Shown one piece after another: positions 39,189 to 57,400 of a stretch of 64,000 nucleotides of DNA; the stretch's first letter is position 1; every line of letters begins with the position of its first letter. Position numbers and translations under genes: made by a program. The notes below the pieces were generated by a model, which saw only the letters and a list, made by a program, of their open reading frames with translations, searched no databases and was not told the DNA's origin. Source of the DNA: Candidatus Nomurabacteria bacterium (GTDB taxonomy: Bacteria > Patescibacteriota > Minisyncoccia > Phycocordibacterales > UBA9973); the NCBI GenBank assembly GCA_021413905.1, contig JAIOPO010000005.1, positions 146,957 through 210,956 of the forward strand. Reading direction: 5' to 3'.

Positions 39189-39199
39189 GTGTTGGTAAC
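39189..39199. promoter_or_regulatory. GTGTTGGTAAC core 55 nt upstream of R2, flanked on the right by the arm TTCGCTTAACAAAAATA and leader RNA copy 2.
   Basis: ggcaacGTGTTGGTAACttcgcttaacaaaaatag. Confidence 0.45.
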
Positions 39200-39285
39200 T
39201 TCGCTTAACAAAAATAGTTATATGCGATAGGATTGATGGATTAATACAGACATATGCTGTATTATGTATATATAATTTAATAACC

Positions 39286-39432
39286 GACCTAACCCCTAAA
39301 AGCCTTTGGTTTATAGGATATGGTCAAAATCCTTCCCAGTAAAAAACTCCTCGTCAGAGTTACCTGGGAAGGTCGTATCTGGAAACAGATACGGATCACC
39401 GAAAGGTGGTCGCTGACGGGGAGCTTTTTGTT
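39286..39432 (+). ncRNA. Structured leader RNA copy 2 of the novel motif.
   Basis: GACCUAACCCC[ccua..uagg]GGAUAUGGUC AAAA [ccttcccagt AAAAAACUCCUCGUCAGAGUU acctgggaagg] UCGUAUCUG-GAAA-CAGAUACGG [cacc-GAAA-ggtg] GCUGACGGGGAGCuuuuu. A -10 box TATAAT is at 39271. Confidence 0.6.
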
Positions 39433-39461
39433 TCTCGTCAAATTAAAACCTTCCCAGTTTT

Positions 39462-40427: not shown

Positions 40428-40448
40428 AGCTATTAAGTAATAAATATG

Positions 40449-42047: not shown

Positions 42048-42423
42048 TTTGAGGTAAAGCTAATAGTAATGCTTGTCGAACAAGTTTTTCTTGTTCGACA
42101 TTAAGTACAGGACTTTCATTTATTATTTTTCCGCTAACTTCGACACGTTCACGAAATTTAGGATTTCTATGTTTTAACCAAAATGAAATCGCTGACCAAT
42201 TCTTTTCACGAATAAGAACAAGTAATTGATTCTCACTCATGTCATTAACCAAGTCTTCACCTTCTTGCAAAGCTATTTCCATTTCCTTTCTAAAAACCTC
42301 ATCTTCTTTCCGCCAGCGATATACTGTATTTCTTGAAAGTCCGATCTGCTCACAAGAAACCTGAATTATTGGAATTTTTTTAAGTTTTTCCAAAAACTCG
42401 TCTTTCTTCCTAGTTTTTTTCAT
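42028..42423 (-). CDS. Small HTH protein, putative terminase small subunit, module B.
   Basis: HTH GLSRNTVYRWRKE. Confidence 0.45.
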   Translation of the reverse strand: MKKTRKKDEFLEKLKKIPIIQVSCEQIGLSRNTVYRWRKEDEVFRKEMEIALQEGEDLVNDMSENQLLVLIREKNWSAISFWLKHRNPKFRERVEVSGKIINESPVLNVEQEKLVRQALLLALPQNEKENN

Positions 42424-43690
42424 AGAATTTTTTTATTATCTTAGCTTTTCGACCAGTCAATTTTTCATATCTCCGTATTGCAAGGTCACAAAAAATTGGC
42501 TCAATTTCAAGTGAGTATACTTTGCGCCCCAATTGTTCGGCGCAGATCATCGTACTTGCAGATCCGGAGAAAGCATCAAAGATAATATCACCTGGCTTTG
42601 TGCAGCGCATAATAAACTTATGGTGCAATTCAGGATTCTTGCTCGTCGGGTGCTCCATTTGATTCGATGGAAGTCTTTTGGTCGCCCAAAGATTCGATAT
42701 GTCTTCAAGGAGTTGGTTGCCCGTGCCTAAATCTTTGTTTTGAATCTCATTTAGATTTTTCTGTAAGTCAGACAAATACGGTGAGCCTTTTGTGCCGTAA
42801 ACACAAAACTCTGTGCATTTATTAAATGCAACAGTAGGGGTCGGAGAAGAATTATTTTTTACCCAAACATTTAATCTTCTATTTTTAATCCCGAGTTCCA
42901 TATACAGAGTTTGGAAAACCCAAACCCATGCTTCGTCTGACCAAAATGCTACATGGATATCTTCGATTGAAACAGCGAGAGAAGACTGTAGTACTTTTCG
43001 GATAAACTCAACATATTCTTTAGGTGGTTGATTGTCGTCAAAAGAACCGCCGTAGTTGCTTTTATTGCCAACTCCTTTGTCATATGAAAGCCCGATATTA
43101 AAAGGTGGATCATTGTATATAGCTGTCGCCCTGTGTTCGCCGAATAATTTTTGCACAGCATGTATATCCGTAGAACTGGCGCAGAGCAATTTGTGATCTC
43201 CCATAACTATGAGATCACCCTTTTGCACGACAGGCTTCTTTATCTTTTTTAATTCTTTCGATACATCAAACTTGTCGTCTTTTGTATCCCTGTCTTCGTC
43301 CCAAGACTTTGCCAATTCTATTTGGTCAAATCCAATATCAGTCAGCAAATCTATTTCAAACGATTTTAACTTCTCAACTTGCCACTCCCCGTCATTTATA
43401 TTGGATTCTAAACCTATTTTTATTCTTTCTTCTTTTGTAAGTTTCCGATTTGGAACAAGTATATTAACTTCCTTAATACCAAGTTTCGTAAGAGCAGTTT
43501 TTCTTTGATTACCTGAAAGAATTGTATTGTCTGTGTCTATTACAATTGAAGCGTGAAATCCTCTTTGGTTAATTCTTTCCGTTAACTTTTCCAAGTCTTC
43601 CTTGCTAATTTTACGCGGATTTTCTTTCCACGTTAATAAATCTTTTACTTTTCTAACTTCTGCGCTCCAAAATAATTTGGATTTATTCAT
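42410..43690 (-). CDS. ParB-like domain fused to a DNA methyltransferase, module B.
   Basis: NDPPFN motif IV and FDAFSGSAST motif I; the N-terminus is ParB-like. Confidence 0.8.
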   Translation of the reverse strand: MNKSKLFWSAEVRKVKDLLTWKENPRKISKEDLEKLTERINQRGFHASIVIDTDNTILSGNQRKTALTKLGIKEVNILVPNRKLTKEERIKIGLESNINDGEWQVEKLKSFEIDLLTDIGFDQIELAKSWDEDRDTKDDKFDVSKELKKIKKPVVQKGDLIVMGDHKLLCASSTDIHAVQKLFGEHRATAIYNDPPFNIGLSYDKGVGNKSNYGGSFDDNQPPKEYVEFIRKVLQSSLAVSIEDIHVAFWSDEAWVWVFQTLYMELGIKNRRLNVWVKNNSSPTPTVAFNKCTEFCVYGTKGSPYLSDLQKNLNEIQNKDLGTGNQLLEDISNLWATKRLPSNQMEHPTSKNPELHHKFIMRCTKPGDIIFDAFSGSASTMICAEQLGRKVYSLEIEPIFCDLAIRRYEKLTGRKAKIIKKFYEKN

Positions 43691-44118
43691 AATGCTTAAA
43701 TAATTAAACTTTTAATACAAGAAAAACCAAGATTACTCTCAGCTCTAACTTTTAAAAGATAAACTTCAAAAAGCTAGAGCTCAACGGCTAAATAATTGTT
43801 GATCTCCACCTTTTTAGAGTTCATCCGATGTGAGCTTGTAGGGATTACTCCCTAGTCTCCAACACACACCAGCACTTACCTAAATAAATGGGGTATTAAA
43901 TTTTTCTTGAGGTTAAAAGAATTTCGACTAAAAAATTATTTTAACCCATATACATTATACTAGCTTTTTTATTTTTTTATCTTTTTTTGAATTAACAAAA
44001 AATCCTTTGTTTACAAGGGTTATATATTAGCAAAGTCCTTAAAAAATATTATGCAATATAATTTTACGTCTTGTAATGGGTAAATTGAGTTATTAACTTG
44101 CGCTAAACATATAATGCT

Positions 44119-44754
44119 GTGTATACTAGTTATACTATGATAAATAACCTGAGTGATAAAGACAAGAGAGCCTTTGCCCTTATCCGCAACAAGGTTATAC
44201 ATTATGGTAAAAGTCCTACCCTTCGTCAGATCAATGAAGTTACGGGTGGAAAGTCCCCACGCTCTGCAAGCCTTGTAATTGATAGACTTGTATTGTCTGG
44301 TCTTATAAAAAAGAATGGAAGAGATATGATGCTTGCAAATACTTACCAAGAAAGCTCTGTAAGTACAATAGATGTACCATTGGTTGGATCTGTTTCGTGT
44401 GGAGTACCAGTTTTTGCAGAAGAAAATATACAAACCTATATTCCTGTTTCAGTAAAACTTGCGAAAAAAGGTTCAGAGTATTTTTTTCTCCGAGCATTTG
44501 GTGATTCAATGAATGAGGCAGGAATAAATAGCGGTGATTTACTTCTTATAAGACAACAAGACACGGCAGAGAGTGGAGATAAGGTTGTTGCGCTCATTAA
44601 TGATGAAGCAACGGTAAAGATTTTTGAAAAGACTCGTGATGCTATTATTCTACGACCAAAATCAAATAATAAAATTCACAAGCCTATTATATTAACAACT
44701 AACTGCATGATCCAAGGAGTAGTCGTTGCGGTGCTTCCAGAGGATCTGTGCTAA
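44119..44754 (+). CDS. LexA/CI-like repressor (wHTH plus S24 peptidase). The preferred start is the ATG at 44137.
   Basis: DNA-binding N-terminus TLRQINEVTGGKSPRSASLVIDRLVLSGLI. The S24 Ser-Lys dyad appears at AFGDSMNEAGI and ATVKIF. A palindrome GTATACTAGTTATAC overlaps the start. Confidence 0.75.
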   Translation: MYTSYTMINNLSDKDKRAFALIRNKVIHYGKSPTLRQINEVTGGKSPRSASLVIDRLVLSGLIKKNGRDMMLANTYQESSVSTIDVPLVGSVSCGVPVFAEENIQTYIPVSVKLAKKGSEYFFLRAFGDSMNEAGINSGDLLLIRQQDTAESGDKVVALINDEATVKIFEKTRDAIILRPKSNNKIHKPIILTTNCMIQGVVVAVLPEDLC

Positions 44755-44969
44755 AAAATATGGCAAAATCAGTAGTAGTAACAAATGAATCAGAGTCTGG
44801 AAGAAATCAGAATTTTCATGACAACAAATCAGGAAAAGATATGACACGAGCTGGGTTCGTAAAAGAAATTGAACAAGGTAATTACGATGATTATCATGTA
44901 CGTATGGTCAACGGTGTAAAAACACCCGTGTCGAACCCTGACGGTAAAGAAGGTAACAATTTGGATTAA
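44748..44969 (+). CDS. Small hypothetical protein of about 70 aa.
   Basis: Short ORF whose start overlaps the repressor's stop; YHVRMVNGVKTPVSNPDGKEGNNLD. Confidence 0.3.
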   Translation: MLKNMAKSVVVTNESESGRNQNFHDNKSGKDMTRAGFVKEIEQGNYDDYHVRMVNGVKTPVSNPDGKEGNNLD

Positions 44970-44974
44970 ATTTT

Positions 44975-45793
44975 ATGGCAGATATTGATTCATACATAGA
45001 AGACCTTAAGAAAAAATCGGAAGAAAGATTTGAGCAATTTAAAATTGTAGACATCAGTAGCATTAAAGAAATATCGAACGATGCCTATCTAGAGAAACCA
45101 ACATGGCTTGGTGGTGATAAAAAGTTTGTATGTTTATTTATTGATCTTGATAAGTCATCCAAGATATCATTCAAAAAACATCCAAAGACGATGGCTAAAA
45201 TATATGATTATTTTACACAGAACATTGTTGATATATTAAATCACCCGACATTCGGAGCCGATTATATTGATATCAAAGGAGACGGAGCATTCGGTATTTT
45301 TGAAGGCGATAAGGCTTCTTACAAAGCACTATACTGTGCTATTACTTTTAAAACCCTATTCGAGCAATCGATTCGAGATAAGTTTAGCGACGAAGAAGAT
45401 CAATTGAGTTGTAAATTTGGAATACATAAAGACAAACTCCTTGTGAGAAAAATAGGAAAGCGAGGACATGGTAATTACAACGAAGTTTGGGCAGGTAGAT
45501 TAGTTAATAACGCTGCGAAGCTAGCAAACCAGGCAAAAGACATCCCTCAAGATATTGCTTATCCTCTCTCACTCCCTATTCTTATATCTGAACAAGTTCA
45601 TAGCGACTTTGAGAAAAATAAAGAGTTCGGATTTTATCACTGCTGTACTGGTAATGGTCAACCTCTGCCAAATCAAATAGAAATGTTCAAAGAGGTCAAT
45701 GATTTTTCTGATGAGACATTGGGTGATAAGTTTTATTACACAAGAGTGATTTGGTGTAAAAATTGCGCTGATAATTACATTAACCTTATCTAG
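44975..45793 (+). CDS. Class III nucleotidyl cyclase-like protein (adenylate/guanylate/pyrimidine cyclase fold), cyclase 1.
   Basis: The metal-binding Asp motifs FIDLDKSSKI and IKGDGAFGIF match the F.DI.GFT and KTIGDAYM patterns of class III cyclases. Confidence 0.55.
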   Translation: MADIDSYIEDLKKKSEERFEQFKIVDISSIKEISNDAYLEKPTWLGGDKKFVCLFIDLDKSSKISFKKHPKTMAKIYDYFTQNIVDILNHPTFGADYIDIKGDGAFGIFEGDKASYKALYCAITFKTLFEQSIRDKFSDEEDQLSCKFGIHKDKLLVRKIGKRGHGNYNEVWAGRLVNNAAKLANQAKDIPQDIAYPLSLPILISEQVHSDFEKNKEFGFYHCCTGNGQPLPNQIEMFKEVNDFSDETLGDKFYYTRVIWCKNCADNYINLI

Positions 45794-45795
45794 AT

Positions 45796-46269
45796 ATGGA
45801 AAACCTAAAATACACCTTCGGACAAGTAAATGATTGGATTAAAACGGCGGATCAAAAAGCCATGATCTTAGGGTCATTTAATATCGCTGGTTTTATATAT
45901 CAACTTGTGAATCTCGACAAATTGGTGTGTGGAAGTATTTATACACTAATATTGTCTATAGTATCAATCGCCGCCACGTTGGTTACTCTATATTTCTGGC
46001 TTAGGATTATCTATCCAAAACTTGATAATAAACACAAGAAGTCCAAAATTTACTTTCAACATATCGCAAACGCCTACGAAAATGATATCGCTTCAGGGAT
46101 AGATGATTTACAAAAGATAGATGATGAGGAATATAAAAAAGATTTGGCTAGCCAGATTGTAATAAATTCAATCATTGCAAAGAAGAAATATGCTTCTATT
46201 CAAAAATTTATTTGGGCTTTTGGAGTTCAGTTAGTCACTCTACTTTTACTGCTAATTAGCCTGATCTAA
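45796..46269 (+). CDS. Small 3-TM membrane protein, SLATT/PycTM-like putative pore-forming effector.
   Basis: 157 aa with two adjacent N-terminal TM helices and a C-terminal TM helix; no nucleotide-binding domain is evident. Confidence 0.45.
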   Translation: MENLKYTFGQVNDWIKTADQKAMILGSFNIAGFIYQLVNLDKLVCGSIYTLILSIVSIAATLVTLYFWLRIIYPKLDNKHKKSKIYFQHIANAYENDIASGIDDLQKIDDEEYKKDLASQIVINSIIAKKKYASIQKFIWAFGVQLVTLLLLLISLI

Positions 46270-46270
46270 G

Positions 46271-47062
46271 ATGTCTGAATTTAAAGACAGTCTTATAAGA
46301 GATACTGACTATTTTTTTGATGGCGATTATGAAATCGTACAAGGTAGAATGATTCCTAGTGTAGATGAAGTAGCCTTTGGTAGGTTTGGGAAGGAAGTTG
46401 AATTAGCCATGCTATTTATTGACGTCAAAGAATCCACAAAAATAGTAGACGCTTTTCGCCTGAAAACTGCGGCTCGTATGTATCAGTCATTTTTAAGAGG
46501 AGTAACTTTGATTGCCCTCAAAAATGGTGGTGAAGTAAGAAGCTTTAATGGTGATGGTGTATTAGTTACCTTTCATGGTGATTCAAAGTGCGACAATGCG
46601 GTTCGGTCTGCATTGCAAATGATGGATTTTGCCAATACAGTCTTGAAACCAAAATTAAGAAGTTATTTCGTTAATAACAAACAAGCACAAAACCTTATTT
46701 TTGATTGTGGTATTGGGATAGATATCGGTAATGTATTTGTAGTGAGAGGTGGTGCTAAGGGTGATGATAATAATGATCTAGTATGGGTCGGCAATCCAAC
46801 AAATTATGCAGTTAAACTTTCAGCGCAATCAAAAGTACAAACACTAGGCAGTCTTGCTACAGCTCCTGTTACAACAGTTTACAATATACATATCACAAAT
46901 CGAGTTTATGTAAACCTCAAACCTGAACTTAAAACAGTAAAAGGTTCTGGCGTTTTTGCTTTCAATATTTGGAACAGACAGCCATCAGCATTGGGAGGTC
47001 TCTTGCCTGGTTCTTTGGCTACAACGACAATTTATCGAACAAATAAAACTTTACCTTTTTAA
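46271..47062 (+). CDS. Class III nucleotidyl cyclase-like protein, cyclase 2.
   Basis: LFIDVKESTKI and FNGDGVLVTFHG motifs. Confidence 0.55.
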   Translation: MSEFKDSLIRDTDYFFDGDYEIVQGRMIPSVDEVAFGRFGKEVELAMLFIDVKESTKIVDAFRLKTAARMYQSFLRGVTLIALKNGGEVRSFNGDGVLVTFHGDSKCDNAVRSALQMMDFANTVLKPKLRSYFVNNKQAQNLIFDCGIGIDIGNVFVVRGGAKGDDNNDLVWVGNPTNYAVKLSAQSKVQTLGSLATAPVTTVYNIHITNRVYVNLKPELKTVKGSGVFAFNIWNRQPSALGGLLPGSLATTTIYRTNKTLPF

Positions 47063-47110
47063 AATTTTTATTTCCTGTGAAAATTAGTACACTTTTGATA
47101 CAATAAACAA

Positions 47111-47614
47111 ATGATCAATTTAATTATCCTTGTATTTTTGATAGCAGTTGTTTTTATCTTTCTTAAAAAATATTTTCCAGACATATTTAATGAAAAAGAT
47201 AAGCCAAGCAAATCTCCGTATAATTACAAGAAAAAAGATTTTTTAATGAGTCGAGCAGAACATGAGTTTTTTGATATTCTTGTTGATATAGTAGGTAATC
47301 AATATTATGTATTTCCACAAATACACCTATCAACTATTTTAGACAATAAGGTTGTAGGACAAAATTGGAGAGGTGCCTTTCGTCACATAGATGAAAAATC
47401 AGTTGATTTTGTTATTTGTGATAAAGCATATATCAAACCAATTCTTGCCATTGAATTAGATGACAAAACACACGAAAGAGAAGATAGAAAAGGACGAGAT
47501 GGAGAAGTAGAGCGTATTCTTAAGGAATCAGGACTATCTCTTTTAAGATTTGGGAATAATGGGAGTTTTAATAAGGAAGAAATAAAAAGATCTATTTCAG
47601 AAAAAATAAAGTAA
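47111..47614 (+). CDS. Membrane-anchored DUF2726-like PD-(D/E)xK nuclease-fold protein.
   Basis: N-terminal TM; ...YVFPQIHL...VDFVICDK...LAIELDDKTHE gives a D...E.D arrangement. Confidence 0.55.
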   Translation: MINLIILVFLIAVVFIFLKKYFPDIFNEKDKPSKSPYNYKKKDFLMSRAEHEFFDILVDIVGNQYYVFPQIHLSTILDNKVVGQNWRGAFRHIDEKSVDFVICDKAYIKPILAIELDDKTHEREDRKGRDGEVERILKESGLSLLRFGNNGSFNKEEIKRSISEKIK

Positions 47615-47629
47615 TAGAAATCTATAGCA

Positions 47630-48610
47630 ATGCCGGACATAAAGAAAAACTTAATGTTGCTAACTGGTGCAGGGTTCACACGAAATTTTGGTGGGTTTTT
47701 AGCACGTGAGATGTGGTCAAAAATATTTAATAATCCAATTGTACAAGCAAGCGCAGAAGCACGAGGATTACTTTTGAATGATTTTGACTTTGAGTCTGTC
47801 TACTCGGCTAAAATGAGCCATGGAGAAGAAACAATAAAGATTATAAGAGAGGCTGTCGAAATGGCATATAAGGATCTTGATGATACAGTAAAAAATTGGG
47901 TTTTTAATCATGGCAATCCAACGGCACTTAATACATACGGGTTAGGTGAGCTTCTTAGTTTTATATCAAGTAGAGGTTCAGATAAAGGATGGTTCTTTAC
48001 CCTCAATCAAGATTTATTTATGGAACGAAAACATAATTACAGATCACCAGGAGCAATGTTTAGTCAGCCTTTTATTGAAGGAGATAATGGTAAAATTGGA
48101 ATTATAACTTTACCCAATGAAAACGGTGTAGAAAAAGTTAAAAATACTTTAAATAATGCAAGTTATATAAAACTACATGGATCATATGGCTGGATTTCAT
48201 CACACGGTGGCAATCAGATGGTAATTGGTAAAAACAAAGTAAATGATATTGATCAAGAACCATTATTAAAATGGTATTTTGAGATTTTTCAAAATCTAAT
48301 TAAAGAAGGTAATAAAAAATTATTAATCATTGGCTATGGGTTTGCCGATAATCATATAAACGACATTCTGCTTAACGGAATACAGGAGCATGGTCTTAGT
48401 TTGTATATAATAAGCACAACTGATCCAGAAACATTTAAAAATAGACTTGAGGGAAAACCGTCACATTTAGGCAGTTGGGAGGTTTCTAAATATTCAAAAA
48501 TATGGGATGGTGTTAAAGGATATTTTCCTTATTCATTAAGAGATATATACCCTCCAGACCAAAGTATTACTACCATATCACTAGAAATTAAAAAGGCTTT
48601 GGAAAGTTAA
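47630..48610 (+). CDS. SIR2_2-family (SIR2-like) protein; putative NADase effector.
   Basis: LLTGAGFTRNFGG, FFTLNQDLFMER, KLHGSYGW and LLIIGYGFADNHI motifs. Confidence 0.55.
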   Translation: MPDIKKNLMLLTGAGFTRNFGGFLAREMWSKIFNNPIVQASAEARGLLLNDFDFESVYSAKMSHGEETIKIIREAVEMAYKDLDDTVKNWVFNHGNPTALNTYGLGELLSFISSRGSDKGWFFTLNQDLFMERKHNYRSPGAMFSQPFIEGDNGKIGIITLPNENGVEKVKNTLNNASYIKLHGSYGWISSHGGNQMVIGKNKVNDIDQEPLLKWYFEIFQNLIKEGNKKLLIIGYGFADNHINDILLNGIQEHGLSLYIISTTDPETFKNRLEGKPSHLGSWEVSKYSKIWDGVKGYFPYSLRDIYPPDQSITTISLEIKKALES

Positions 48611-48673
48611 GTTACAGCTAACTGTAACATTTAAAGTCCAACTTGTGTCACTTTTGTAACTTTTTGAGATGCT

Positions 48674-48763
48674 CGAGACGCGTCGTTATGGTATGATAAA
48701 AAAAGTCTCAAAAGCCTTACAGGTCTTGTTTGCGAAAGGTTCTAACACGAGACCGCCCGCATT
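48674..48763 (+). pseudogene. Degenerate tRNA-Ser-like sequence (pseudo-tRNA) followed by a copy of the tRNA-Ser trailer block.
   Basis: It aligns end to end with tRNA-Ser 15950-16036 (GACGCGTCG.., ..GTCTCAAAAG.., ..ACAGG.., ..GGTTCTAACAC.., ..CCGCCCGCA), but the acceptor ends do not pair. Confidence 0.4.
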
Positions 48764-48832
48764 GACAACCTGTTAGTTTTGATGACCCATTTAGTTATGT
48801 ACTAAGTGCGACCCACAAACCTACATGTTGCA

Positions 48833-48866
48833 GAAAAAAGAACGACAATTGCCGTTCTTTTTTCTT
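48833..48866. terminator. Bidirectional intrinsic terminator.
   Basis: aaaaaAGAACGacaattgCCGTTCTtttttc. Confidence 0.55.
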
Positions 48867-49254
48867 AACTGAAATCTATTTCAAAATTATACATTCCCAT
48901 ACCACAAGTTCCCCTGAGTGGCTCACCAGCTTTAGGTATGCCGATATCAATTATTTCTTCTGCTGATTGAGAGAGAATTTTTTGATAATTAATTGATTTA
49001 ATAACCAAAGAAGCTGAACAGTCGTATGTACCGCTTGTTTTTACAATTAATTTTGTAGGAATACCTGCTTTAGCATTACTTAGTTGTGGAGAATACCCAC
49101 CCTTAGCATCAATTGTTATGTATTGTATCCCGTCTTTTATCTCGGTATTTTGAATTATTTTACTAGAGTCTTTTGTTGTTGATCCACCTGTTAAAACAAT
49201 ACCTATGGCAACAATAAGACCTAGTGTAATGATTATTGAAACTGTTTTGTTCAT
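48865..49254 (-). CDS. Membrane-anchored cupredoxin-like small protein.
   Basis: N-terminal TM and a C-terminal ...TCGMGMYNFEIDF cupredoxin-like end. Confidence 0.4.
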   Translation of the reverse strand: MNKTVSIIITLGLIVAIGIVLTGGSTTKDSSKIIQNTEIKDGIQYITIDAKGGYSPQLSNAKAGIPTKLIVKTSGTYDCSASLVIKSINYQKILSQSAEEIIDIGIPKAGEPLRGTCGMGMYNFEIDFS

Positions 49255-49272
49255 AAAGTAATTATATCAAAA

Positions 49273-50280
49273 TTAAATATTAAATAATGGATTTATAACA
49301 CCAAGACCTGCCAGCCCTGCGAGTAAAGCAAATATACCAAGACCTACAACAACAACTCCCGCAGATTTAAAGAATAAGGGTGCATGTTTACCATGCGCAA
49401 AAGATGCCGATCCAAAAGATAGAATTGAAAGCACTGGTAATGTTCCAAGAGCAAATGTAAACATAATCAATAATCCAGACATAAAAGATCCACTTGAAAT
49501 AGCTGCTACTTGCATAGCCTGTGTAAATCCACATGGTAAGAAGAATGTGGCAAATCCTATAATAAGAGGAGTTAAAGTTTTATGTTCAACCTTTCTAAAG
49601 AAATTAAAAACACCTGAAGGTAAGGTAACATTACTCTTTTTAAAAACTCCTACTAAATTTAAGCCAAGTAGTAGCATAACGATTGAAGCCACAATACCTA
49701 GTATTGCTGAGAATGTGAAACTTATACCAATAGCATTACCTATAAGTCCTAAAACTCCACCCAAAAGAGCAAAGCTGACTAATCTACCAGTATGAAAAAG
49801 TATGAAAGTTTTAGTATCGCTTATATTATCTTCAGAGATTTTCGCAGAAAGAGATAATACTAGACCACCGACAATCGCAAGACAACTTGAAACAGATGCA
49901 ATAAGACCAACGATAAAACTTGTCATTGGAGTAGTCTTACCTCCAATACCTAAATTGAGAATTCCTGATTTTTGTAATATGAAAAATAAGACAAGAAAAA
50001 CTAAACCAATAGGTATAGCTTTCCAAATAACATCATCTTCTTTATTTTTATTAAGTTTTTTTTCAACCGACAAAGAGTATCCATTGGGTTTAATTTTATC
50101 TGCAAGAATGGTTGCGATTTCGTCTATGTTCTGTTCAGTATTCATTTCAACATCTACGGTCTCATTTTTTAGATTTACATTTGATTTAACAACAAAAGAC
50201 TGCTCATTCAAAATATCTTCTATCAAGATTTTACATGATGCGCAGTGTGTTCCAGTTACATAAAATTTGTAATTTTTCAT
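49273..50280 (-). CDS. Heavy-metal-associated (HMA) domain fused to a DsbD/CcdA-like polytopic membrane region.
   Basis: N-terminal GTHCASCKILIE HMA motif; the remainder has 6-8 TM helices. Confidence 0.55.
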   Translation of the reverse strand: MKNYKFYVTGTHCASCKILIEDILNEQSFVVKSNVNLKNETVDVEMNTEQNIDEIATILADKIKPNGYSLSVEKKLNKNKEDDVIWKAIPIGLVFLVLFFILQKSGILNLGIGGKTTPMTSFIVGLIASVSSCLAIVGGLVLSLSAKISEDNISDTKTFILFHTGRLVSFALLGGVLGLIGNAIGISFTFSAILGIVASIVMLLLGLNLVGVFKKSNVTLPSGVFNFFRKVEHKTLTPLIIGFATFFLPCGFTQAMQVAAISSGSFMSGLLIMFTFALGTLPVLSILSFGSASFAHGKHAPLFFKSAGVVVVGLGIFALLAGLAGLGVINPLFNI

Positions 50281-50303
50281 TGTTTTATAAGTTAATATTT
50301 ATT

Positions 50304-50774
50304 TTAATCATAATTGAGCACTATCTTGTCTCCATCTTTCATATAATAATTCCCAAAATCCAATTTATCTACACCATTTACTGTCATCCTTATATTTGAA
50401 CCGAAAGAGTTTATATCCTTATTCCAAATTTTGAAAAACTCACTGAGTTTAGTATCTCTACCTCGAACTACTGATGAAAACTCCAAATGGATAACTCCTA
50501 ACTGTGAATCTTCGTCGTGAGTGTGAATTGGATTATGAACCGCACCAAGTCCAATATTTGCGGGGATTTCTACTTTTTCTCCTTTTATATATATAGAAAG
50601 CTCAGGATGCCAGTGAATTCCGTTTCGAGAAATTATTTCTGATTCATAAGGATTTTCCACACTACTAGATGAGGGTTTGTCTGAATATACGAAATAAACA
50701 AAAACCCCAATGACTAAAATGGCTAGTATCCATATCCAGATATTTTTATTATTTTTCTTGTGCTTATTTTTCAT
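50304..50774 (-). CDS. Membrane-anchored His-rich hypothetical protein.
   Basis: TM anchor, then HWHPE...HNPIHTHDED, which are possible metal ligands. Confidence 0.4.
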   Translation of the reverse strand: MKNKHKKNNKNIWIWILAILVIGVFVYFVYSDKPSSSSVENPYESEIISRNGIHWHPELSIYIKGEKVEIPANIGLGAVHNPIHTHDEDSQLGVIHLEFSSVVRGRDTKLSEFFKIWNKDINSFGSNIRMTVNGVDKLDFGNYYMKDGDKIVLNYD

Positions 50775-50776
50775 AA

Positions 50777-53095
50777 TTATAATCTCTTACTTTTAATTCT
50801 CAGTGAGTTCGACACAACTGACACTGATGACATCGCCATCGCAAATCCTGCAAATACTGGATTAAGCAACCAGCCAAAAATTGGGTAAAAAACTCCAGCC
50901 GCAAGAGGGATTCCTACAATATTGTAAATGAATGCCCAAAAAAGGTTTTGTTTAATTCCTCGCATTGTTATTTTTGATAACCTTATTGCTTTTACAATTT
51001 TTGAAATATCTCCACCCAGGAGTGTAATTCCTGCTGACTCAATGGCAACATCAGTACCTGTACCCATGGCGATACCGACATCGGCTTGAGCTAGTGCAGG
51101 AGCGTCATTTACTCCATCACCCGCCATAGCAACAACATGTCCTTGGGATTGAAGTTCTTGTATTTTTAATAACTTATCTTGAGGTAAAACATGAGCAACA
51201 ACTTCATCGACTCCAACAAGAGATGCGATGTGTTTCGCCGCTTTTTCATCATCGCCTGTAAGCATCACTACTTTAATTCCAAGTTTATGAAGAGCATTAA
51301 TAGCTTCTTTTGATTCAGGTTTTATTTCATCTGCAACCATTACAAAACCAAGAACTTTTTCTTTTGTAGATATAATGACAGGAGTTTTTCCTTGGGATGT
51401 AAACTCTTCTAGCAATGTTTGATCAAAAGAAAGATTTAAATCTTTAATAAGCTTTATATTACCAACAAAATATTCAACCTGCTTAACAGACCCTTTTAGA
51501 CCTTTTCCTTGAATTCCTTCAAAGTTTGAAACTTCTTGTATGGGGATATTCTTCTCTTTTGCATAGTTCACAATTGCGTGTGCGATTGGATGTTCAGATT
51601 TTTTCTCTAGTGTTGCAAGTATTCCTATCAAATCTTCATTACTCATATCTGAGCTATTTTGGATATCAACAAGTGTCGGTTTCCCAATTGTTATCGTTCC
51701 TGTTTTATCCATCATGACAGTATCAACTTTGTGTAATTTCTCTAGCGTAGCCGCATCTTTAATCAGTATTCCTTCCTTTGCTCCTTTACCAACCCCTACA
51801 ATGATTGCAGTCGGGGTAGCAAGTCCAAGTGCACATGGGCATGCAATAACTAATATCCCGACAAAGGATACAAGTCCAAATGAAAGAGCTTGTGAAAATC
51901 CAAGTGAGCCAGTTCCAAACGCCAACCATACCCCCAAAGTCACAAAAGCTAAGATAAGAACTATCGGTACAAAAACGCTTGAAATCTTATCAGCTAATGC
52001 CTGAATAGGGGCTTTACTCCCTTGGGCTTCTTCAACCATGTGTATAATTTGAGCCAGCAATGTTTCTGATCCAACTTTTGTGGCTTTAAAAACAAACGAT
52101 CCACTTGTATTAATTGTTCCTGCGACCACACTATCTCCAATCTTTTTCTGTACTGGCATTGGCTCTCCTGTTACCATTGATTCATCAACAAAAGATGATC
52201 CCTCAGTAATGACTCCGTCTACTGGAATCTTTGTTCCTGGTTTAACAATAATTAAGTCTCCATGCTTAACCTCATTTATAGAAATCTCTACTTCCTTACC
52301 TTCACGCACAACCAAGGCTGTTTTTGCTTGAAGATTTAAAAGTTTTTCTATCGCATCTCCTGTTTTAATTTTTGAACGAGCTTCTAAATATTTACCAAGA
52401 GCGATAAAAGTAATCACTACAATGGTCACATCGTAGTAAGTATGATCTACATTTATAAAAGGTCTGAGTACTTCTTCAAATGCACTGACAGCAAAACTAT
52501 ATAAAAAAGCGGCAACAGTACCGATACCGATAAGTGTATCCATATTAGCTTTGCCATATCTTAAGAAACGATAAAACCCCAGAAGATATGGTTTCCCTAC
52601 AACAAATAGAGTATAGGTCGCAAAAATAGGTAATAGATGGTGAAAAAATTCTTTGAGTGTATAGCTCATCATAGGGACAATACTGTACTGAGCAAGAATA
52701 TCCCAAGTCATGACGAAAACACTAAAGATGGCTAGTGGAATAGCTGACATGACTTTAGATTTCATATCCTTTATCTCTTCAATCTTTTCCTTTTTTGACT
52801 GATTTAATCCTAAATGTTCAGCATGTTCGTTTTCACTCATACCCATAGAACTCGCAGGCATGCTTTCCGTACTATGATCCATAGGTGCTATCAAAGAATA
52901 CCCAAGCGGTTCCAATTTCTTATTAAAAGATTCAGCGTTAGTTTTTGAACTATCAAAAACAATCTTTGCGTTCTCGGTACCATTGTTTACTGAAATATCT
53001 TCCACTCCATCGATTTTTTTTACTGTTCTTTCAATAATACTTGCACACGAAGCACAATGCATACCTTTAATTTTGTATATCTTTGGAGTATTCAT
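50777..53095 (-). CDS. copA: Copper-translocating P1B-type ATPase.
   Basis: HMA motif [12 protein letters not shown]; transmembrane CPC motif; DKTGTIT phosphorylation site; [10 protein letters not shown]. Confidence 0.9.
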
Positions 53096-53098
53096 AAA

Positions 53099-53362
53099 TT
53101 ATTTTCGCTTAAGCTGATAAACTTTTAAAATTTCCTTAGTAGCAACATCGACTTTGCCACTTTTAATTTGACCAACAACACAATGACCAAGGTGGCTCTC
53201 AAGGAGAATATCCTCAATACTTGAAAGACCTTGTTTTACAGCAGAGGTCTGGGTAATGACATCGATACAGTACTTTTCCTCTTCAATCATTTTTTGGATA
53301 CCTCGAACTTGTCCTTCTATTTTTTTGAGCCTTGTTATGAGTTTTTGTTTATCTTTATGCAT
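53099..53362 (-). CDS. csoR: CsoR/RcnR-family copper-sensing repressor. Revised start at MHKDKQ.
   Basis: ...RLKKIEGQVRGIQKMIEEEKYCIDVITQTSAV...HLGHC. The track ORF extends to 53404 but would include the operator palindrome. Confidence 0.8.
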   Translation of the reverse strand: MHKDKQKLITRLKKIEGQVRGIQKMIEEEKYCIDVITQTSAVKQGLSSIEDILLESHLGHCVVGQIKSGKVDVATKEILKVYQLKRK

Positions 53363-53400
53363 AATGCTATTATACCCCCTAGGGGGTATAATAGCAAGTT
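53363..53400 (-). promoter_or_regulatory. csoR-copA promoter with the perfect 20-bp palindrome TATACCCCCTAGGGGGTATA, a CsoR-type operator, lying between a -35 TTGCTA and a -10 TATAAT.
   Basis: The minus-strand read is TTGCTAttaTACCCCCTAGGGGGTATAATagcattATG. The spacer is 17 nt, and the operator matches the ATACCC...GGGTAT CsoR-box style. Confidence 0.55.
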
Positions 53401-53408
53401 TCAAAATG

Positions 53409-54737
53409 TCAGTCTACTAGAGTAATCTTCTTCTCTTTCAGTATCAATCTACTCCTCAAATGTCCCATTAATTCACGCTTCTCAAGTGGTGTACCTTCTC
53501 TCAGCACATACTTGGCATACTCTCTTGTGTTCACATCATCTTCATTGATGTTGTATTTCGGAGTGCCTTTAGTTGCCAACCTCTGCAGTCTGTTAAATCG
53601 CTTGATCTCTTCTTCAAGTTTGATTCGCATACCCAGTTCGTTGATGCTTACCTTATCGATTACTTTGAACAGCTCCTCGATCAATTCTTCTTCTCGTATA
53701 TATTTATTTTTACAATTCCTATCTCTCGCCTTGGAACATGAGTAGTACACATACTTGGCAGTCGTGCCATCTTTGAGTTCCTTATACTTCTCCTGTGCCG
53801 TTATTCCTGACTCGCACATTCCGCAGGTAAATAATTTGGTAAATGCAAACTCTCGATTTTCTCTCACAATCCTATCTCGCTTCAGTTGCTCCTGTGCTTT
53901 TTCAAATAGCTCTTGAGTAATGATCGGCGTATGGCTTCCTTGGTACCAGTTATCGCTATTTCGTGGATACTCGAATGGTCCATAGTAGATCGGCATATTG
54001 AAGATACGATAAACCCCTGAGAGTGTCAGGGGCTTATTTCCTCGGGTATAGAAATTTAGATCAAATCTGAGCCAGTTGTATACTTTTCTTCCACTCCATT
54101 TTTCGTATACCACTTTCTCAAACATTTTCTTGATAATCGGCGCTCGTTCTGGATCAATCACTATTTGGCACTTTCTGTCCATTAGTTTTTGATTCAGGTA
54201 TCCAAGCGGTGCCATTCCAGGCCATAACCCCATCTCCACTCTCGTTCGCAATCCTCGCTTCACATTGATACCTCGATTGTCATTTTCAAGTTTTGCTTGG
54301 CTTCCTAATATCATCAGGAGGAACTTCTCATTTGGATTATTTCCGAATGTCTGCCCAAAAGTTCGTATCATATGCAGTTTTCCTGAATCCATCAGGTCTA
54401 CGATTTTTCCCAAGTCTCCTGCGTTTCTTGAAATTCTATCTGGTGCCCAAGTCAGTATTGCATTGAACTTCTCTTGTTTGAGTTCCTCGATAATTTCATT
54501 GAAGACTGGTCGTTGTCCTGTCTCCTTTGCACTATGGCTCTCACGCTTCATGGTGACCACTTCAAGCCCCTCGCGGTCTGCCAGTTGGAGCATCTCGCTG
54601 ATTTGGCTATCTATGGAAAGCACTTGTCGTTCCTCAGATTCTGTTGATTTTCTTGCGTATAAGCAGTATTTAATCTTCTTTGGTTCAACCTCTGGTTTCT
54701 TTACGCCTTGCTCTTGGTTTGGGTTTTCTATCTTCAC
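53409..54737 (-). CDS. Large serine recombinase, integrase type, copy R3; its stop is 4 nt from the csoR ORF.
   Basis: KYCLYARKSTESEERQVLSIDSQISEMLQLADREGLEVV. It is near-identical to R1 over long stretches and has a zinc ribbon CGMCESG...C. Confidence 0.85.
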   Translation of the reverse strand: MKIENPNQEQGVKKPEVEPKKIKYCLYARKSTESEERQVLSIDSQISEMLQLADREGLEVVTMKRESHSAKETGQRPVFNEIIEELKQEKFNAILTWAPDRISRNAGDLGKIVDLMDSGKLHMIRTFGQTFGNNPNEKFLLMILGSQAKLENDNRGINVKRGLRTRVEMGLWPGMAPLGYLNQKLMDRKCQIVIDPERAPIIKKMFEKVVYEKWSGRKVYNWLRFDLNFYTRGNKPLTLSGVYRIFNMPIYYGPFEYPRNSDNWYQGSHTPIITQELFEKAQEQLKRDRIVRENREFAFTKLFTCGMCESGITAQEKYKELKDGTTAKYVYYSCSKARDRNCKNKYIREEELIEELFKVIDKVSINELGMRIKLEEEIKRFNRLQRLATKGTPKYNINEDDVNTREYAKYVLREGTPLEKRELMGHLRSRLILKEKKITLVD

Positions 54738-54792
54738 AACTACATTGATGACGCAAATCGTCCTAGGAGTCTAGAGCGTCCCACCGCCATAG

Positions 54793-54803
54793 TGTTGGTA
54801 ACT
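54793..54803. promoter_or_regulatory. GTGTTGGTAAC core upstream of R3; the left arm is shared with the R1 site.
   Basis: tgaTGACGCAAatcgtcctaggagtctAGAGCGTCCCaccgccataGTGTTGGTAACtaaaacgcc. Confidence 0.45.
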
Positions 54804-54880
54804 AAAACGCCTTTATTTAAAGGTCGATTTTTGGTAAAATGCATTTACTGGCATAAGAAACTTATGCCCAATATTAAAGT

Positions 54881-57400
54881 ATGAAAATTTTTATTCGCAA
54901 TAATCTATATCGCTCAAAAAAATTTTGGCTCACAAAAAAATGGTTTGAAGAAAAACCAATTTTTAGCTTTTGGGCAAAAATCTTTAAACTCGACTTTAAT
55001 ATAAATAAGGGTAAATATTCGGCACGCTTATTGTGGCCTTCAATTTTTCCCTTCATTCGGACCCTTATCTATTCTGTTTTTATAATCGCAATTTTTGAAA
55101 CGTACAGTTACTTTTTTCCAGTAGACCAAAAGATATTTAGCGATCAAGTTACCGATACACTACTTTCGGCAATTGCCAGTGTTTCCGGTGTATTCCTTGG
55201 TCTTTATTTTACAGCTGTTTCCGGTATTGCTAGTAATTTTTTATTGCGTGCCACTCAAAACATAAGGCGTTACTTCCTCTCAACTCCAATTGGAGAACAA
55301 TACGTTAAAACCGTAGCCCTTACAGGCATCATAAGTATTTTTTACCTCTTGGCAAAATCGTTTGGACACCCAATACATCCAGTTGGCTTAGTATTTCTTT
55401 GTATTGGTGGAGCCTATATCATAATCAGATTTTGGAGTGTTGGATCAAATGTTTTCTATTCATTGGAACCAACTGTTGCCCTGCCTTCAATCGGTAAAAA
55501 CATTGCAGACCTATTGAGGGGGGTTACGCCACCGGGTTTTAAATGGGATAAACCAGCAATACAAAATCATCAAAGACGCCTAGTGTCAGATAATTTAGAG
55601 CTTGCTAAAGACCTTATTAATTTTGGAATTAAAGAGATAAAGCTTTCAAATGAACAATTGCATATTGCTCTTCGTTATTTAGGTGGTTTGCTTTTTTTGT
55701 ATCCTCAATACAAGAAGAAGATACCGACTAATAGCTTTTGGTTCAAAACAAAAAATCAGTACGATAGTTGGACCTTGGCGGATTCAACACAAATCGCTCT
55801 TGCCTTAAACACTGGCACAAGTTTGCAACCCAAGACAATCAAAGATTTTACTTGGTTTGAAGAAGAAACTTTGGATATGAGTGTAAATATTTTTGAGTTT
55901 TACGCCAAAGAGAAAAATGTTGCCTCTGTATTCCAAGGACTAGAACTTTTTGTAGAAATCGCTGAAGTTTATGCGAATGATTTTGATGAGGAAGGACTAA
56001 AGCTTCTTTTACAGAAAACAGAAAAGGTTGCAGGATTGATTGACCTAGAAAAAGTAGCAGATCCAAAAAATGTTCGGTATAAAGAACAAATGGCTTTTAT
56101 TGATACTCAAGGTCGGTTAGCGATAGGAGCGGTGCTTGGATTGGCTAGGTATCTTGATACTGCTTCTGCGGAAAGCTTATCCACGACTATTTCAAATATT
56201 AAATGGTATTCAAATAGAGACATTTATCTTACTGGGTTACCTTTGTCGGTTCTATCGCGTCTGGAATCCACTGCAAGTGATTTAAAGGCTGAAATGCTAA
56301 TTGAGGGTAAGCAACTTTCCCCTGAGTGGTATATACGCACTCTTTGCGTTCAGAAATACTTATTCGCACTCTTAGGTTATTTCAAATATCTAAAGACTCT
56401 TCATTCAACTTACTTTGAACCAAAGCTTGGGAAATTACTTGCCGAGGATCAATTAGGTCTTGCTGTTCAATTGGTGCAACGCTGGATCGAGTTTACTCAC
56501 AAATATAATCGGCTCGTTGGATTGATTGCAAAACATATTGAAGATTGCGTACCTTATCACCAAGTCAAAGATCTTTCTTGGATAGAGTTTAGTGCGGACG
56601 AAGAGTATAAAACCGCAAGGGACCGCGAAAAAGAAGTAACTGATAAAATGATTAGATTATTGCCTCGATTAATGACAATGCCTACCGAAAGCGATATGCC
56701 AGACTACTTTGGGCAAGCTCTTACGCAAGGCGTTCAGGCCTGTTATGAGGCGTGTGAGGAGAACGACCCAGTTAGATTGAAAGCAATATTCCCGGTTGTT
56801 TTTATAGCTTCACTTTCGGCTTTTGATATGACCCGAGTGAGAGTTCAAAACTGGTCCGAAGAACAAAGCAAAATAATCTATTCAACAGAACCTCTTATAA
56901 ATCTCTACGAACTAAGTGGATTTGCTAAATTGTATTCAGAGCTCTACCAAAACACGGAGCTTTGGAATGTTGTGCAAACACCGTGGGACACTTATTTGGG
57001 TGGTATCGATGCAGTACAAGAAATTACACGCATAGCGGCCATTACTAACTATCGATGTGGACTTTTCATGATCATGCCACAAGCAACCTTACGAACAAAC
57101 TGGCAAATGCGATTTAGTAATAAAATGAGAGAACAAGGTTTAGCTGTTTTCCCCGACAGTAGAAGTTATGACTATGTAAATGGCCGAGAAGATCCTGCGC
57201 ATGCGAGCGCGGTTATTCGTGTAGTTACTCGATCAGGTGGTTTGAGTTTATCTACAGGTCAGACTGTATTTTTCGTAACATATTTATCCCAACACCCGGG
57301 GGCAACAGGAATTGATCTACCAGACCAACGCGACATGAGAGAACAAATACAACGAGAAGAAGAAAGATCTAATGAGGAAGAAAACAACGACTATGAATAA
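54881..57400 (+). CDS. Large polytopic-membrane-anchored protein of 839 aa, unknown function.
   Basis: About 6 N-terminal TM helices, then a cytoplasmic region of roughly 600 aa with no recognisable motif and an acidic C-terminal tail. Confidence 0.55.
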   Translation: MKIFIRNNLYRSKKFWLTKKWFEEKPIFSFWAKIFKLDFNINKGKYSARLLWPSIFPFIRTLIYSVFIIAIFETYSYFFPVDQKIFSDQVTDTLLSAIASVSGVFLGLYFTAVSGIASNFLLRATQNIRRYFLSTPIGEQYVKTVALTGIISIFYLLAKSFGHPIHPVGLVFLCIGGAYIIIRFWSVGSNVFYSLEPTVALPSIGKNIADLLRGVTPPGFKWDKPAIQNHQRRLVSDNLELAKDLINFGIKEIKLSNEQLHIALRYLGGLLFLYPQYKKKIPTNSFWFKTKNQYDSWTLADSTQIALALNTGTSLQPKTIKDFTWFEEETLDMSVNIFEFYAKEKNVASVFQGLELFVEIAEVYANDFDEEGLKLLLQKTEKVAGLIDLEKVADPKNVRYKEQMAFIDTQGRLAIGAVLGLARYLDTASAESLSTTISNIKWYSNRDIYLTGLPLSVLSRLESTASDLKAEMLIEGKQLSPEWYIRTLCVQKYLFALLGYFKYLKTLHSTYFEPKLGKLLAEDQLGLAVQLVQRWIEFTHKYNRLVGLIAKHIEDCVPYHQVKDLSWIEFSADEEYKTARDREKEVTDKMIRLLPRLMTMPTESDMPDYFGQALTQGVQACYEACEENDPVRLKAIFPVVFIASLSAFDMTRVRVQNWSEEQSKIIYSTEPLINLYELSGFAKLYSELYQNTELWNVVQTPWDTYLGGIDAVQEITRIAAITNYRCGLFMIMPQATLRTNWQMRFSNKMREQGLAVFPDSRSYDYVNGREDPAHASAVIRVVTRSGGLSLSTGQTVFFVTYLSQHPGATGIDLPDQRDMREQIQREEERSNEEENNDYE

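Follow-up and report, generated by a model that had tools for sequence, protein, structure and literature searches.

A likely attachment-site seam between tandem serine-recombinase elements at a tRNA-Ser gene of Candidatus Nomurabacteria

We analyzed a 64,000-nucleotide (nt) stretch of Candidatus Nomurabacteria bacterium DNA (contig JAIOPO010000005.1), hereafter the window, in which a tRNA-Ser(TGA) gene is followed on its right by three related prophage-like elements in tandem, designated X, Y and Z, each encoding a large serine recombinase. The G+C fraction (GC) is ~0.31 up to position 16000, 0.44-0.53 over 16001-36000 and ~0.33 beyond, with a step exactly at 16000. Our focus is the boundary between Y and Z, where the initial annotation had placed, inside element Y, a degenerate second copy of the tRNA-Ser gene with its conserved trailer (48674-48835). 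Repeat counts, composition and open reading frame (ORF) features were computed within the 64-kilobase (kb) window. The main features are listed below, with P' and P denoting the left-end and right-end arms of an element.

15950-16036, plus strand: tRNA-Ser(TGA), putative integration target (B arm), from ARAGORN and Rfam (tRNA, 61.7 bits), with a cloverleaf fold.
16037-16106, plus strand: trailer copy 1, read as the P' arm of X (56 bits with trailer covariance model R1); box A at 16037-16054, inner hairpin at 16064-16081, GACCC box at 16079-16088 and a closing strand pairing with box A.
16107-16145, plus strand: intrinsic terminator of trailer copy 1 (terminator scan, 16 pairs then a T run; fold).
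16037-36215, no strand: element X, ~20 kb, high in GC (composition steps at 16000 and 36000; Pfam, PHROGs; paralogy map).
20650-22080, minus strand: large serine recombinase of X (Pfam Resolvase, Recombinase and Zn_ribbon_recom), 89% identical to that of Z.
36216-48761, no strand: element Y, ~12.5 kb (Pfam, PHROGs; locus L056 matches it in gene set and in the P arm that closes the set).
37815-39134, minus strand: large serine recombinase of Y (the three Pfam domains; PHROG 'integrase', 3.5e-62).
48645-48761, plus strand: P arm of Y, 117 nt, holding the 'degenerate tRNA' (nhmmer homologues); direct-repeat motif GTGTCACTTTTGTAAC at 48645-48660, conserved middle CTCGAGACGCGTCG at 48672-48685 and tRNA-3'-end-like half-site at 48736-48761.
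48742-48776, plus strand: putative P/P' core, with inverted hexamers CTAACA (48742-48747) and TGTTAG (48771-48776) 23 nt apart, as read from the sequence.
48762-48835, plus strand: trailer copy 2, read as the P' arm of Z (R1, 101 bits); box A at 48762-48779, first GACCC at 48784-48788, inner hairpin at 48788-48808, AGTGCGACCC at 48805-48814 and a closing strand pairing with box A.
48832-48865, both strands: bidirectional terminator AGAAAAAAGAACGACAATTGCCGTTCTTTTTTCT (fold; kept with the trailer in many loci).
48762-64000, no strand: element Z, continuing past the window end (Pfam; paralogy map; homologues behind other tRNA-Ser genes).
53409-54737, minus strand: large serine recombinase of Z, 89% identical to that of X (the domain scan covered X and Y).

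The trailer is present in exactly two copies. The 18-mer that opens it, TTGACAACCTGTTAGTTT, matches the window only at 16037 and 48762, and allowing three mismatches adds no further site (chance expectation 0.05); the second box, AGTGCGACCC, is exact at 16079 and 48805, lying 24 nt beyond the first box in copy 1; and the covariance model, built from trailer-bearing loci, returns just these two matches in 64 kb (101 and 56 bits). The repeated trailer of the initial annotation is confirmed by both exact boxes and by the terminator behind each copy, and so is its proposal that the unlike inter-box sequences (CUGCC...GGCAG versus UUUAGU...ACUAAG) each form a local hairpin, which both folds place within a longer, irregular hairpin of ~75 nt closed by pairing of the first box with a stretch 3' of the second (fold z-scores against shuffles of -3.7 and -3.2). 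Copy 1 is a GC-rich variant, in keeping with the high GC of element X, and copy 2 is nearly identical in loci L011, L030, L037, L039, L050 and L056 of related genomes. Rfam scans of the whole window and, at higher sensitivity, of 48550-48950 found no family for the block, returning terminator-driven noise only. The terminator at 48832-48865, on which a simple terminator scan made no call, is predicted to stop transcription of the trailer and also of the cargo-integrase gene string of Z, which converges on it. The conserved unit is wider than first annotated, beginning at 48645 and extending through the terminator to 48865. The trailer, seen twice in the 64 kb and once in each 8-kb locus of other genomes apart from L050, is not a high-copy repeat in this material.

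The stretch preceding trailer copy 2 had been described as alignable with tRNA-Ser from end to end. Aligned globally, 48674-48761 yields 54/87 identities, equalled by 5/1000 shuffles, but only the last ~26 nt are tRNA-like: z against tRNA-Ser genes is ~3 with these nucleotides and 0.2-1.7 without them, for the window arm and four homologues. A hidden Markov model (HMM) built from 92 tRNA-Ser genes scores neither the window arm nor its homologues above shuffled controls, ARAGORN and a permissive Rfam scan (E up to 10) report no tRNA at the arm, and its fold z is -0.8. Because the signal is confined to the 3' end, only GGTTCTAACACGAGACCGCCCGCA can be likened to a T-loop and acceptor 3' strand (GAGTTCGAATCTCACCGCCTCCGCC). 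The HMM result and the loss of signal without the last 26 nt rule out tRNA homology over the whole length, and the arm lacks the full-length homology that would make it a tRNA gene or pseudogene.

The arm does have homologues as a unit, in L008, L032 and L056 (nhmmer E 1e-31 to 4e-35) and, more weakly, in L061 (3.7e-6). The 20-mer GTGTCACTTTTGTCACTTTT is exact at the arm start in all four, the window copy carrying one substitution (GTAAC for GTCAC). The arm is assigned to Y because in L056 it accompanies Y-type genes, lying 3' of a methylase, a LexA-like gene and a DUF2726 gene at 88% identity and being followed by a trailer. The annotated block consequently does not stand as a single module inside Y: its tRNA-like part belongs to the right end of Y and its trailer to the left end of Z.

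We searched species-representative genomes for the 17-mer TTGACAACCTGTTAGTT and compared loci of ~8 kb around its matches, which number 57, ~42 of them in Patescibacteria. In the Patescibacteria loci with upstream sequence the trailer starts 1-2 nt past a tRNA-Ser gene, with anticodon TGA, GGA, GCT, ACT or CGA depending on the genome, except for eight loci in which a degenerate tRNA-like stretch lies ahead of it. Downstream, the relatives continue with an inner hairpin, then G(C/T)GACCCACAAAGCTA, then a strand able to pair with the first box, and end in a terminator; the covariance model detects no extra copies across the trailer loci, save in L050 (two). Recombinase homologues (52-96% identity) occur 0.7-4.7 kb downstream of the trailer in 10 loci, nearly always converging on the tRNA and separated from it mostly by metal-resistance genes; the recombinase of Z is 84-96% identical to those at this distance in L019, L022, L033 and L038, with partial copies at contig ends in L027 and L044. 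In the window, too, a trailer or its remnant stands 1.6-4.6 kb left of each recombinase, and the gene order is shared. Among the recurrent neighbours of trailer loci there is no tyrosine integrase; the Pfam-matched ones are efflux, multicopper oxidase, DUF305 and BNR proteins, and three clusters have no match.

The same loci also hold unoccupied tRNA-Ser genes (GCT in L012 and L035, ACT in L039), which end in ...CTCCGC/AAAA and are followed by a plain terminator. Because these other tRNA-Ser genes lack the trailer, it goes with insertion and does not belong to tRNA-Ser genes in general. Trailers that are nearly identical through to the terminator accompany a cupredoxin that is 98-99% identical behind GGA (L030, L037), GCT (L039) and the TGA array of the window, and such identity behind different isoacceptors indicates recent transfer. 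Locus L008 shares the genes upstream of the array and the Z-type copper genes (71-97% identity) with the window; there, 1.15 kb (a GIY-YIG gene and a reverse-transcriptase fragment) separates the real tRNA from arm and trailer. Since L008 has the tRNA, the P arm and Z without X and Y, the latter two are insertions.

Two further arrangements were noted among these loci. In L050 (2211-7210) a 4.8-kb metal-resistance stretch without integrase is flanked by tRNA-Ser(TGA) and trailer on one side and by a tRNA-end-like sequence and trailer on the other; this could be a family member, decayed or non-autonomous, that retains its two ends. The short trailers in L004 (658-711) and L035 (7285-7338) have box A joined straight to GACCCACAAAGCTA, the inner hairpin having apparently been deleted between the two GACCC repeats.

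A second set of relatives was obtained independently of the trailer by scanning metagenomes with an alignment of six integrases, seeded with that of Z, which provided 80 loci at 64-96% identity. ARAGORN identifies a tRNA-Ser gene, with varied anticodons, in ~38 of the 80; without exception it lies downstream of the integrase and converges with it. In nearly every case a relative of the first box stands in the 3' flank of the tRNA nearest the integrase, with consensus (T/A)nGACAAyTTnGTATCGG, then GACCCGA, then a terminator. The exact first box of the window is found only with a 96% identical integrase (L182), TTGACAACTTGGTAGATAC accompanies integrases of 84-88% identity, and box A diverges as integrase identity drops. 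That the first box and the first GACCC change with integrase lineage is as expected of a recombinase half-site and, together with the unoccupied genes, speaks against the earlier notion of the trailer as the tRNA's own. The recombinases of X and Y show the domain composition of large serine recombinases (Resolvase with its serine, recombinase domain, zinc ribbon), and the YARKS serine motif is invariant among the aligned integrases.

Viral contigs were searched for free or circular forms: the exact 18-mer gave two unrelated matches and the second-box 14-mer 120 chance matches, none with box A. Two integrase-bearing viral contigs have neither trailer nor tRNA, and one of them (L061) has a diverged right arm at its end. 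GenBank phages gave no DNA match, and their integrases are at most 28% identical. Some integrase-anchored loci depart from the common layout. In L196 (1503-1662), L240 and L255 the gene beside the integrase is tRNA-Asp(GTC), not tRNA-Ser, and its flank resembles box A (ATTGACAACTTACTATCGG in L196), which suggests an occasional target switch to tRNA-Asp. In L208 (12501-13614) tRNA-Ser genes GGA and ACT lie 0.9 kb apart, with a box-A-type trailer behind each and one integrase adjoining; the arrangement suggests a remnant element caught between two targets.

Both ends of one small element are visible in L032, where it lies entire on the minus strand as tRNA-Ser(GCT) and trailer, metal genes, a truncated integrase and a P arm ending in GTTCTAACACGACGCTCTCCGCC. 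The P arm is followed there by AAAAGAAC / AAAAGAACTT..., with no trailer, and because this is non-trailer DNA the right junction is an attR. L032 is an attL...attR pair, with the trailer as left (P') end and the arm as right (P) end. Other right ends occur in L246, where a tRNA-end-like sequence without trailer lies 6.5 kb from its tRNA-Ser, in L061, and in L212, where the last 24 nt of the tRNA gene recur without mismatch at a distance of 13.2 kb, with box A of another element behind them. The L032 junctions read CTCTCCGCA/TTGAC at attL and CTCTCCGCC/AAAAG at attR; leftward, the arm-specific ACGACG stands against CCCTCA in the tRNA. As attL and attR agree only within CTCTCCGC, we infer that exchange occurred there.

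At the Y/Z seam the inverted hexamers are centred on G 48759, within CCCGCA in the proposed exchange zone, and the same spacing is found in L008 and L056. Such a dyad layout fits the attP sites of serine integrases. The arrangement CTAACA-N23-TGTTAG on CCGC, with a shared core CTCCGC, could be of serine-integrase attP type, but the conserved arms are much longer and the identity in L212 spans 24 nt.

Taken together, the comparisons make it likely that 48645-48865 is the seam of tandemly integrated Y and Z, members of a Patescibacteria family that inserts at tRNA-Ser 3' ends via a large serine recombinase. The locus has what marks a tRNA-targeting attachment junction: a nearby recombinase, an intact tRNA with a tRNA-end-like fragment, and, in related genomes, unoccupied sites free of the element end. 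The array would read tRNA / P'x X Px / P'y Y Py / P'z Z... The earlier proposal of a recombination scar or tRNA-derived module holds insofar as the block is an attachment-site junction of tRNA-Ser-integrating elements; it fails in treating the block as one module in Y with its own trailer and full tRNA likeness.

We envisage integration as follows, inferring from sequence comparison that the serine recombinase is the catalyst and, likewise, the exact exchange point and the order of arrival. In the excised element, P/P' would act as attP, which the integrase would pair with the tRNA-Ser 3' end (attB), exchanging strands within the CTCCGC shared at that end. The tRNA body would be kept and would gain the trailer and terminator of the element, while the native flank would move behind the P arm. 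The P' arm would start with the recombinase half-site, box A TTGACAACCTGTTAGTTTTG plus GACCC, built into the ~75-nt hairpin and followed by the bidirectional terminator. Newcomers would insert beside the tRNA, pushing older elements outward and leaving P/P' seams behind, so that the P' arm of X, homologous to that of Z, would now stand behind the real tRNA-Ser at 16037.

Several observations weigh against this account. Trailers without an integrase within 3-7 kb occur in L010, L016, L021, L036, L050 and L055. The exact 24-nt repeat of L212 is more reminiscent of tyrosine-integrase systems, whose identity cores are long. Neither a circular or excised form nor an empty site of this tRNA-Ser(TGA) was seen; P/P' occurs only at tandem seams, and the evidence is comparative. 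Canonical serine integrases join attP with attB only, and array growth into an occupied tRNA/P' junction is not textbook behaviour. The 117-nt P arm and 75-nt hairpin far exceed a serine-integrase attP of ~50 base pairs (bp), which implies that part of the module has a role beyond attP; and because many members have only box A, GACCC and a terminator, the long hairpin is not essential to integration.

The best-surviving alternative complements the attachment-site reading and develops an earlier suggestion of a small RNA or processing signal: the trailer would be both an att arm and a functional RNA of the element, made only after integration as the 3' part of the tRNA-Ser transcript and acting as a processing signal, insulator or trans-acting small RNA. 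We regard it as possible, though somewhat less likely than its opposite, on the strength of compensatory changes and a G.U bias on the tRNA-sense strand. A two-stem hairpin is the common fold of all 35 distinct trailers (with the two window copies, among others, at fold z-scores of -3 to -4), and a strong terminator always lies behind. The inner stem comprises 11 different 5-mers, paired at 4.8/5 with their own partners versus 1.8/5 with foreign ones, a figure partly built in, as inner-stem anchors were taken from each sequence's own fold. This own-versus-foreign comparison was made because neither alignment fixed the inner-stem register: RNAalifold on a MAFFT alignment of the 35 trailers gave a trivial 6-bp stem only, with the variable inner hairpin out of register, and in the model-fitted alignment the inner stem is only 62% paired and overall covariation lies only modestly above shuffles.

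In the outer stem the model-fitted alignment has two pairs with double changes. This stem is fixed in the 17-mer set, since the search itself held the first box constant, and integrase-anchored relatives were used instead; in other box-A subtypes the 3' strand changes to match (ACUUGGUAG/CUAUCAAGU, CAAUUUAGUA/UACUAGAUUG, CUAUCGGC/GCCGAUAA). G.U pairs outnumber A.C 64 to 14, which favours structure on the tRNA-sense strand, that is, in RNA. The compensatory base-pair changes by which conserved structured RNAs are recognized thus appear to be present. On the other side, the trailer belongs to no Rfam family in the scans above, many relatives lack the hairpin, L004 and L035 have lost the inner part of it, and an inverted second protein-binding half-site would mimic outer-stem covariation. 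The trailer hairpin may thus also function at the RNA level, perhaps insulating or standing in for the native trailer. Because integration removes the native terminator and the cargo-integrase genes are antisense to the tRNA, our best guess is that the module combines replacement trailer, insulator and terminator; in the insulator version, the hairpin would stop read-through from the tRNA promoter into the antisense cargo-integrase genes. More tentatively still, and on balance doubtful as a whole, the serine recombinase might recognize the common 3' end of all tRNA-Ser isoacceptors, with a left-end RNA module that contains the half-site and, transcribed only after integration from the host tRNA-Ser promoter, reports or stabilizes the integrated state or insulates the antisense genes.

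Far less credit attaches to the trailer as a host-encoded, vertically inherited 3' element of Patescibacteria tRNA-Ser genes beside which mobile elements merely insert. Its position behind tRNA-Ser in ~42 Patescibacteria genomes and its conserved structure would suit such an origin, which we nevertheless hold to be improbable: other tRNA-Ser genes in the same loci are without it, it is generally present once per locus and on different isoacceptors in different genomes, it is near-identical down to the terminator behind different tRNAs with 98-99% identical cargo, its box A follows integrase lineage in integrase-anchored loci, and it is duplicated at element-element seams with element DNA ahead.

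Largely refuted, and very improbable, is the view of 48674-48835 as a decayed duplicate of the host tRNA-Ser with its native trailer, produced by segmental duplication or by displacement by a tRNA-carrying island. The whole-length identities (54/87) and the same trailer behind both copies had spoken for it, but the likeness vanishes without the last 26 nt, the tRNA-Ser HMM is null and unoccupied tRNA-Ser genes have no such trailer. Moreover, the 117-nt arm, including the 45 nt upstream of the 'tRNA', is kept at element right ends elsewhere (L056, and the attR without trailer in L032), and a neutral pseudogene would not hold the exact 20-mer of L008, L032, L056 and L061. An integron-like cassette site, folded as an imperfect hairpin like the attC sites between gene cassettes, is scarcely credible despite the long imperfect hairpin with conserved outer stem and variable centre and the integrase-free 4.8-kb metal-resistance segment between two trailers in L050, since neither the window nor the recurrent neighbours contain a tyrosine or integron integrase, the breakpoints fall at the tRNA/trailer boundary and not in the hairpin, and the window boxes, as read from the sequence, depart from the attC R''/R' consensus and do not qualify as an integron attC.

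The seam between X and Y is more degraded than that between Y and Z, and its two arms are given here.

36090-36215, plus strand: degenerate P arm of X, starting GTGTCTCATCTGTAAC and ending ...CACGTACACCGCC (alignment to the P arm of Y; less certain than the other parts).
36216-36269, plus strand: putative degenerate left-end arm of Y, ATTGACAGGTAG..., with box-A remnant and terminator at 36237-36269 (read from the sequence).

Global alignment of 36090-36215 with the arm of Y gives z = 3.7, a score that 0/1000 shuffles equal. The seam reads CACCGCC/ATTGACAGGTAG..., the left arm of Y resembling the L188-type box A ATTGACAACTTGGTAG. A pseudo-tRNA end fused to the trailer 3' box GCGACCCACAAAGCTA was also considered at this seam; its 16-nt match scores 27, within the shuffle range (maximum 30), and it was dropped on that ground, a P arm of X with a degenerate box A of Y fitting better.

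Regarding gene content, element X contains the serine integrase, a LOOT RNA, a terminase large subunit, DNA methylases and an Mrr-like nuclease, with a 1360-amino-acid ATPase-like protein and a YibE/F protein as cargo. The gene order of Y is HNH, serine integrase, LOOT RNA, endolysin-like, terminase large and small subunits, ParB-methylase, LexA-like repressor, Pycsar-like pair, second cyclase, DUF2726 and SIR2_2; that of Z is copper genes (cupredoxin, DsbD/HMA, P-type ATPase, CsoR-like), serine integrase, LOOT RNA and methylases. Each recombinase is followed by a LOOT RNA, a terminase large subunit (X and Y), a terminase small subunit or helix-turn-helix gene (supported for Y only) and a ParB-type DNA methylase; the 499-amino-acid ORF of Z in the terminase large position (60157-61656) has no Pfam or PHROG match. 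Scans of X and Y (20650-36000 and 36278-48610) recognized no capsid, portal or tail genes, with terminase large in both and terminase small and an endolysin-like gene in Y; the two may be phage satellites or decayed prophages.

LOOT RNA (Rfam, 75-82 bits) occurs four times in 64 kb, at 12834-12975 (minus strand) and at 27789-27921, 39286-39411 and 58547-58668 (plus strand). Each of X, Y and Z has one, right of the integrase and just upstream of a plus-strand gene, with flanks that are alike in X and Y (repeat families D2, D16 and D20); the fourth lies left of tRNA-Ser with no integrase near. LOOT may be a hallmark RNA of the element family, and a literature search on it returned nothing usable.

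The right end of Y (44975-48610) encodes defence cargo: a cyclase (weak Guanylate_cyc match) that forms a Pycsar-like pair with a PycTM effector, then another paralogue of the cyclase, a nuclease-like DUF2726 protein and SIR2_2, preceded by a LexA/S24-like repressor at 44119-44754. Between the trailer and integrase of Z lies a copper cassette (48865-53404) of cupredoxin, DsbD/HMA, a 156-amino-acid protein, P-type ATPase and CsoR-like repressor. Right behind the X trailer, the 1360-amino-acid ORF (16200-20282) has no Pfam match and a P-loop-like GEPGVGKT motif near its sequence start, and a 79% identical fragment of it occupies the same position in L018.

Left of the array, a GIY-YIG gene (15656-15964) lies between 34-nt repeats (15623-15656 and 15929-15962) composed of 21 nt of upstream DNA and the initial 13 nt of tRNA-Ser; it looks as though a small cassette entered the D-arm and restored the 5' end. 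GC-rich hairpins precede this ORF, and a related GIY-YIG gene follows right after the same tRNA in L008 (4125-4450). A minus-strand ORF of at least 2514 codons (1-7544), running off the left end of the window, is a giant protein gene, which accounts for the ORF list seeming empty there.

The locus illustrates how very small Patescibacteria genomes gather defence (Pycsar-like pair, SIR2, DUF2726 nuclease) and metal-resistance genes at tRNA-Ser, on elements of 12-20 kb that appear to move between isoacceptors and genomes. A serine-integrase lineage aimed at a tRNA 3' end and tolerant of almost any right-hand flank would be relevant to the mining of integrases and att sites as tools, and an att arm doubling as a hairpin in a tRNA trailer provides a case in which the rewriting of a host tRNA transcript at its 3' end by a mobile element can be tested. 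In annotation work, element ends in this clade can be marked precisely by means of the 17-mer and the 117-nt arm.

No description of this element system was found in the literature searched. Its closest analogue is the tycheposons of Prochlorococcus, 910/937 of which use tyrosine recombinases (bioRxiv 10.1101/2020.12.28.424599). Both are small cargo-carrying or satellite-like elements, site-specific at tRNA genes including tRNA-Ser(TGA), that bring adaptive cargo (metal, nutrient or defence genes) and pile up in tandem, older ones being displaced from the tRNA by newcomers, with partial tRNAs and decayed remnants left behind. X, Y, Z and their relatives differ in carrying a large serine recombinase and in residing in Patescibacteria, and, where tycheposons leave a partial tRNA alone, the Y/Z seam has a 117-nt conserved arm and a structured ~75-nt trailer. 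Tyrosine integrases also direct the P4-type islands of the Islander catalogue (PMC4383910) and phage mv4, which uses the tRNA-Ser 3' end (10.1101/2023.11.06.565760), and in Mycobacterium abscessus prophages it is tyrosine integrases, with identity cores of 25-76 bp, that use tRNA sites, while Int-S sites are not at tRNAs (PMC8092301). Tyrosine-integrase systems at tRNA genes share with the present family the 3'-end target, the restored gene end and a tRNA-3'-end-like fragment at the far end; here, in contrast, the recombinase is of the serine type, the core spans only ~6-8 nt (CTCCGC) and five tRNA-Ser isoacceptors are served by integrases of 84-96% mutual identity.

Phage large serine integrases of the Bxb1, phiC31 and A118 type have the same Resolvase, Recombinase and zinc-ribbon set, dyad hexamers ~12 nt on each side of the centre, as in the putative attP here, and very small attP/attB identity; the window-family integrase is, however, at most 28% identical to any in GenBank phages. 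Known large serine integrases mostly target protein-coding genes, and we know of none that needs a 117-nt arm or a hairpin. Phage satellites of the phage-inducible chromosomal island type resemble the present elements in size (12-20 kb), integrase, repressor-like gene, terminase small and large subunits and endolysin-like gene, and in that no capsid or tail genes were detected; unlike for these satellites, no helper phage, packaging site or capsid-remodelling genes were identified here. The 3' external transcribed spacer of leuZ in Escherichia coli (3'ETS-leuZ) is comparable as a structured trailer of a tRNA transcript upstream of a terminator; the predicted trailer RNA described here differs in being brought by a mobile element and doubling as a recombination arm. 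An attachment-site seam at a tRNA gene is in itself of a fairly ordinary kind, and what sets this one apart is the serine type of the enzyme and the conserved folded tail.

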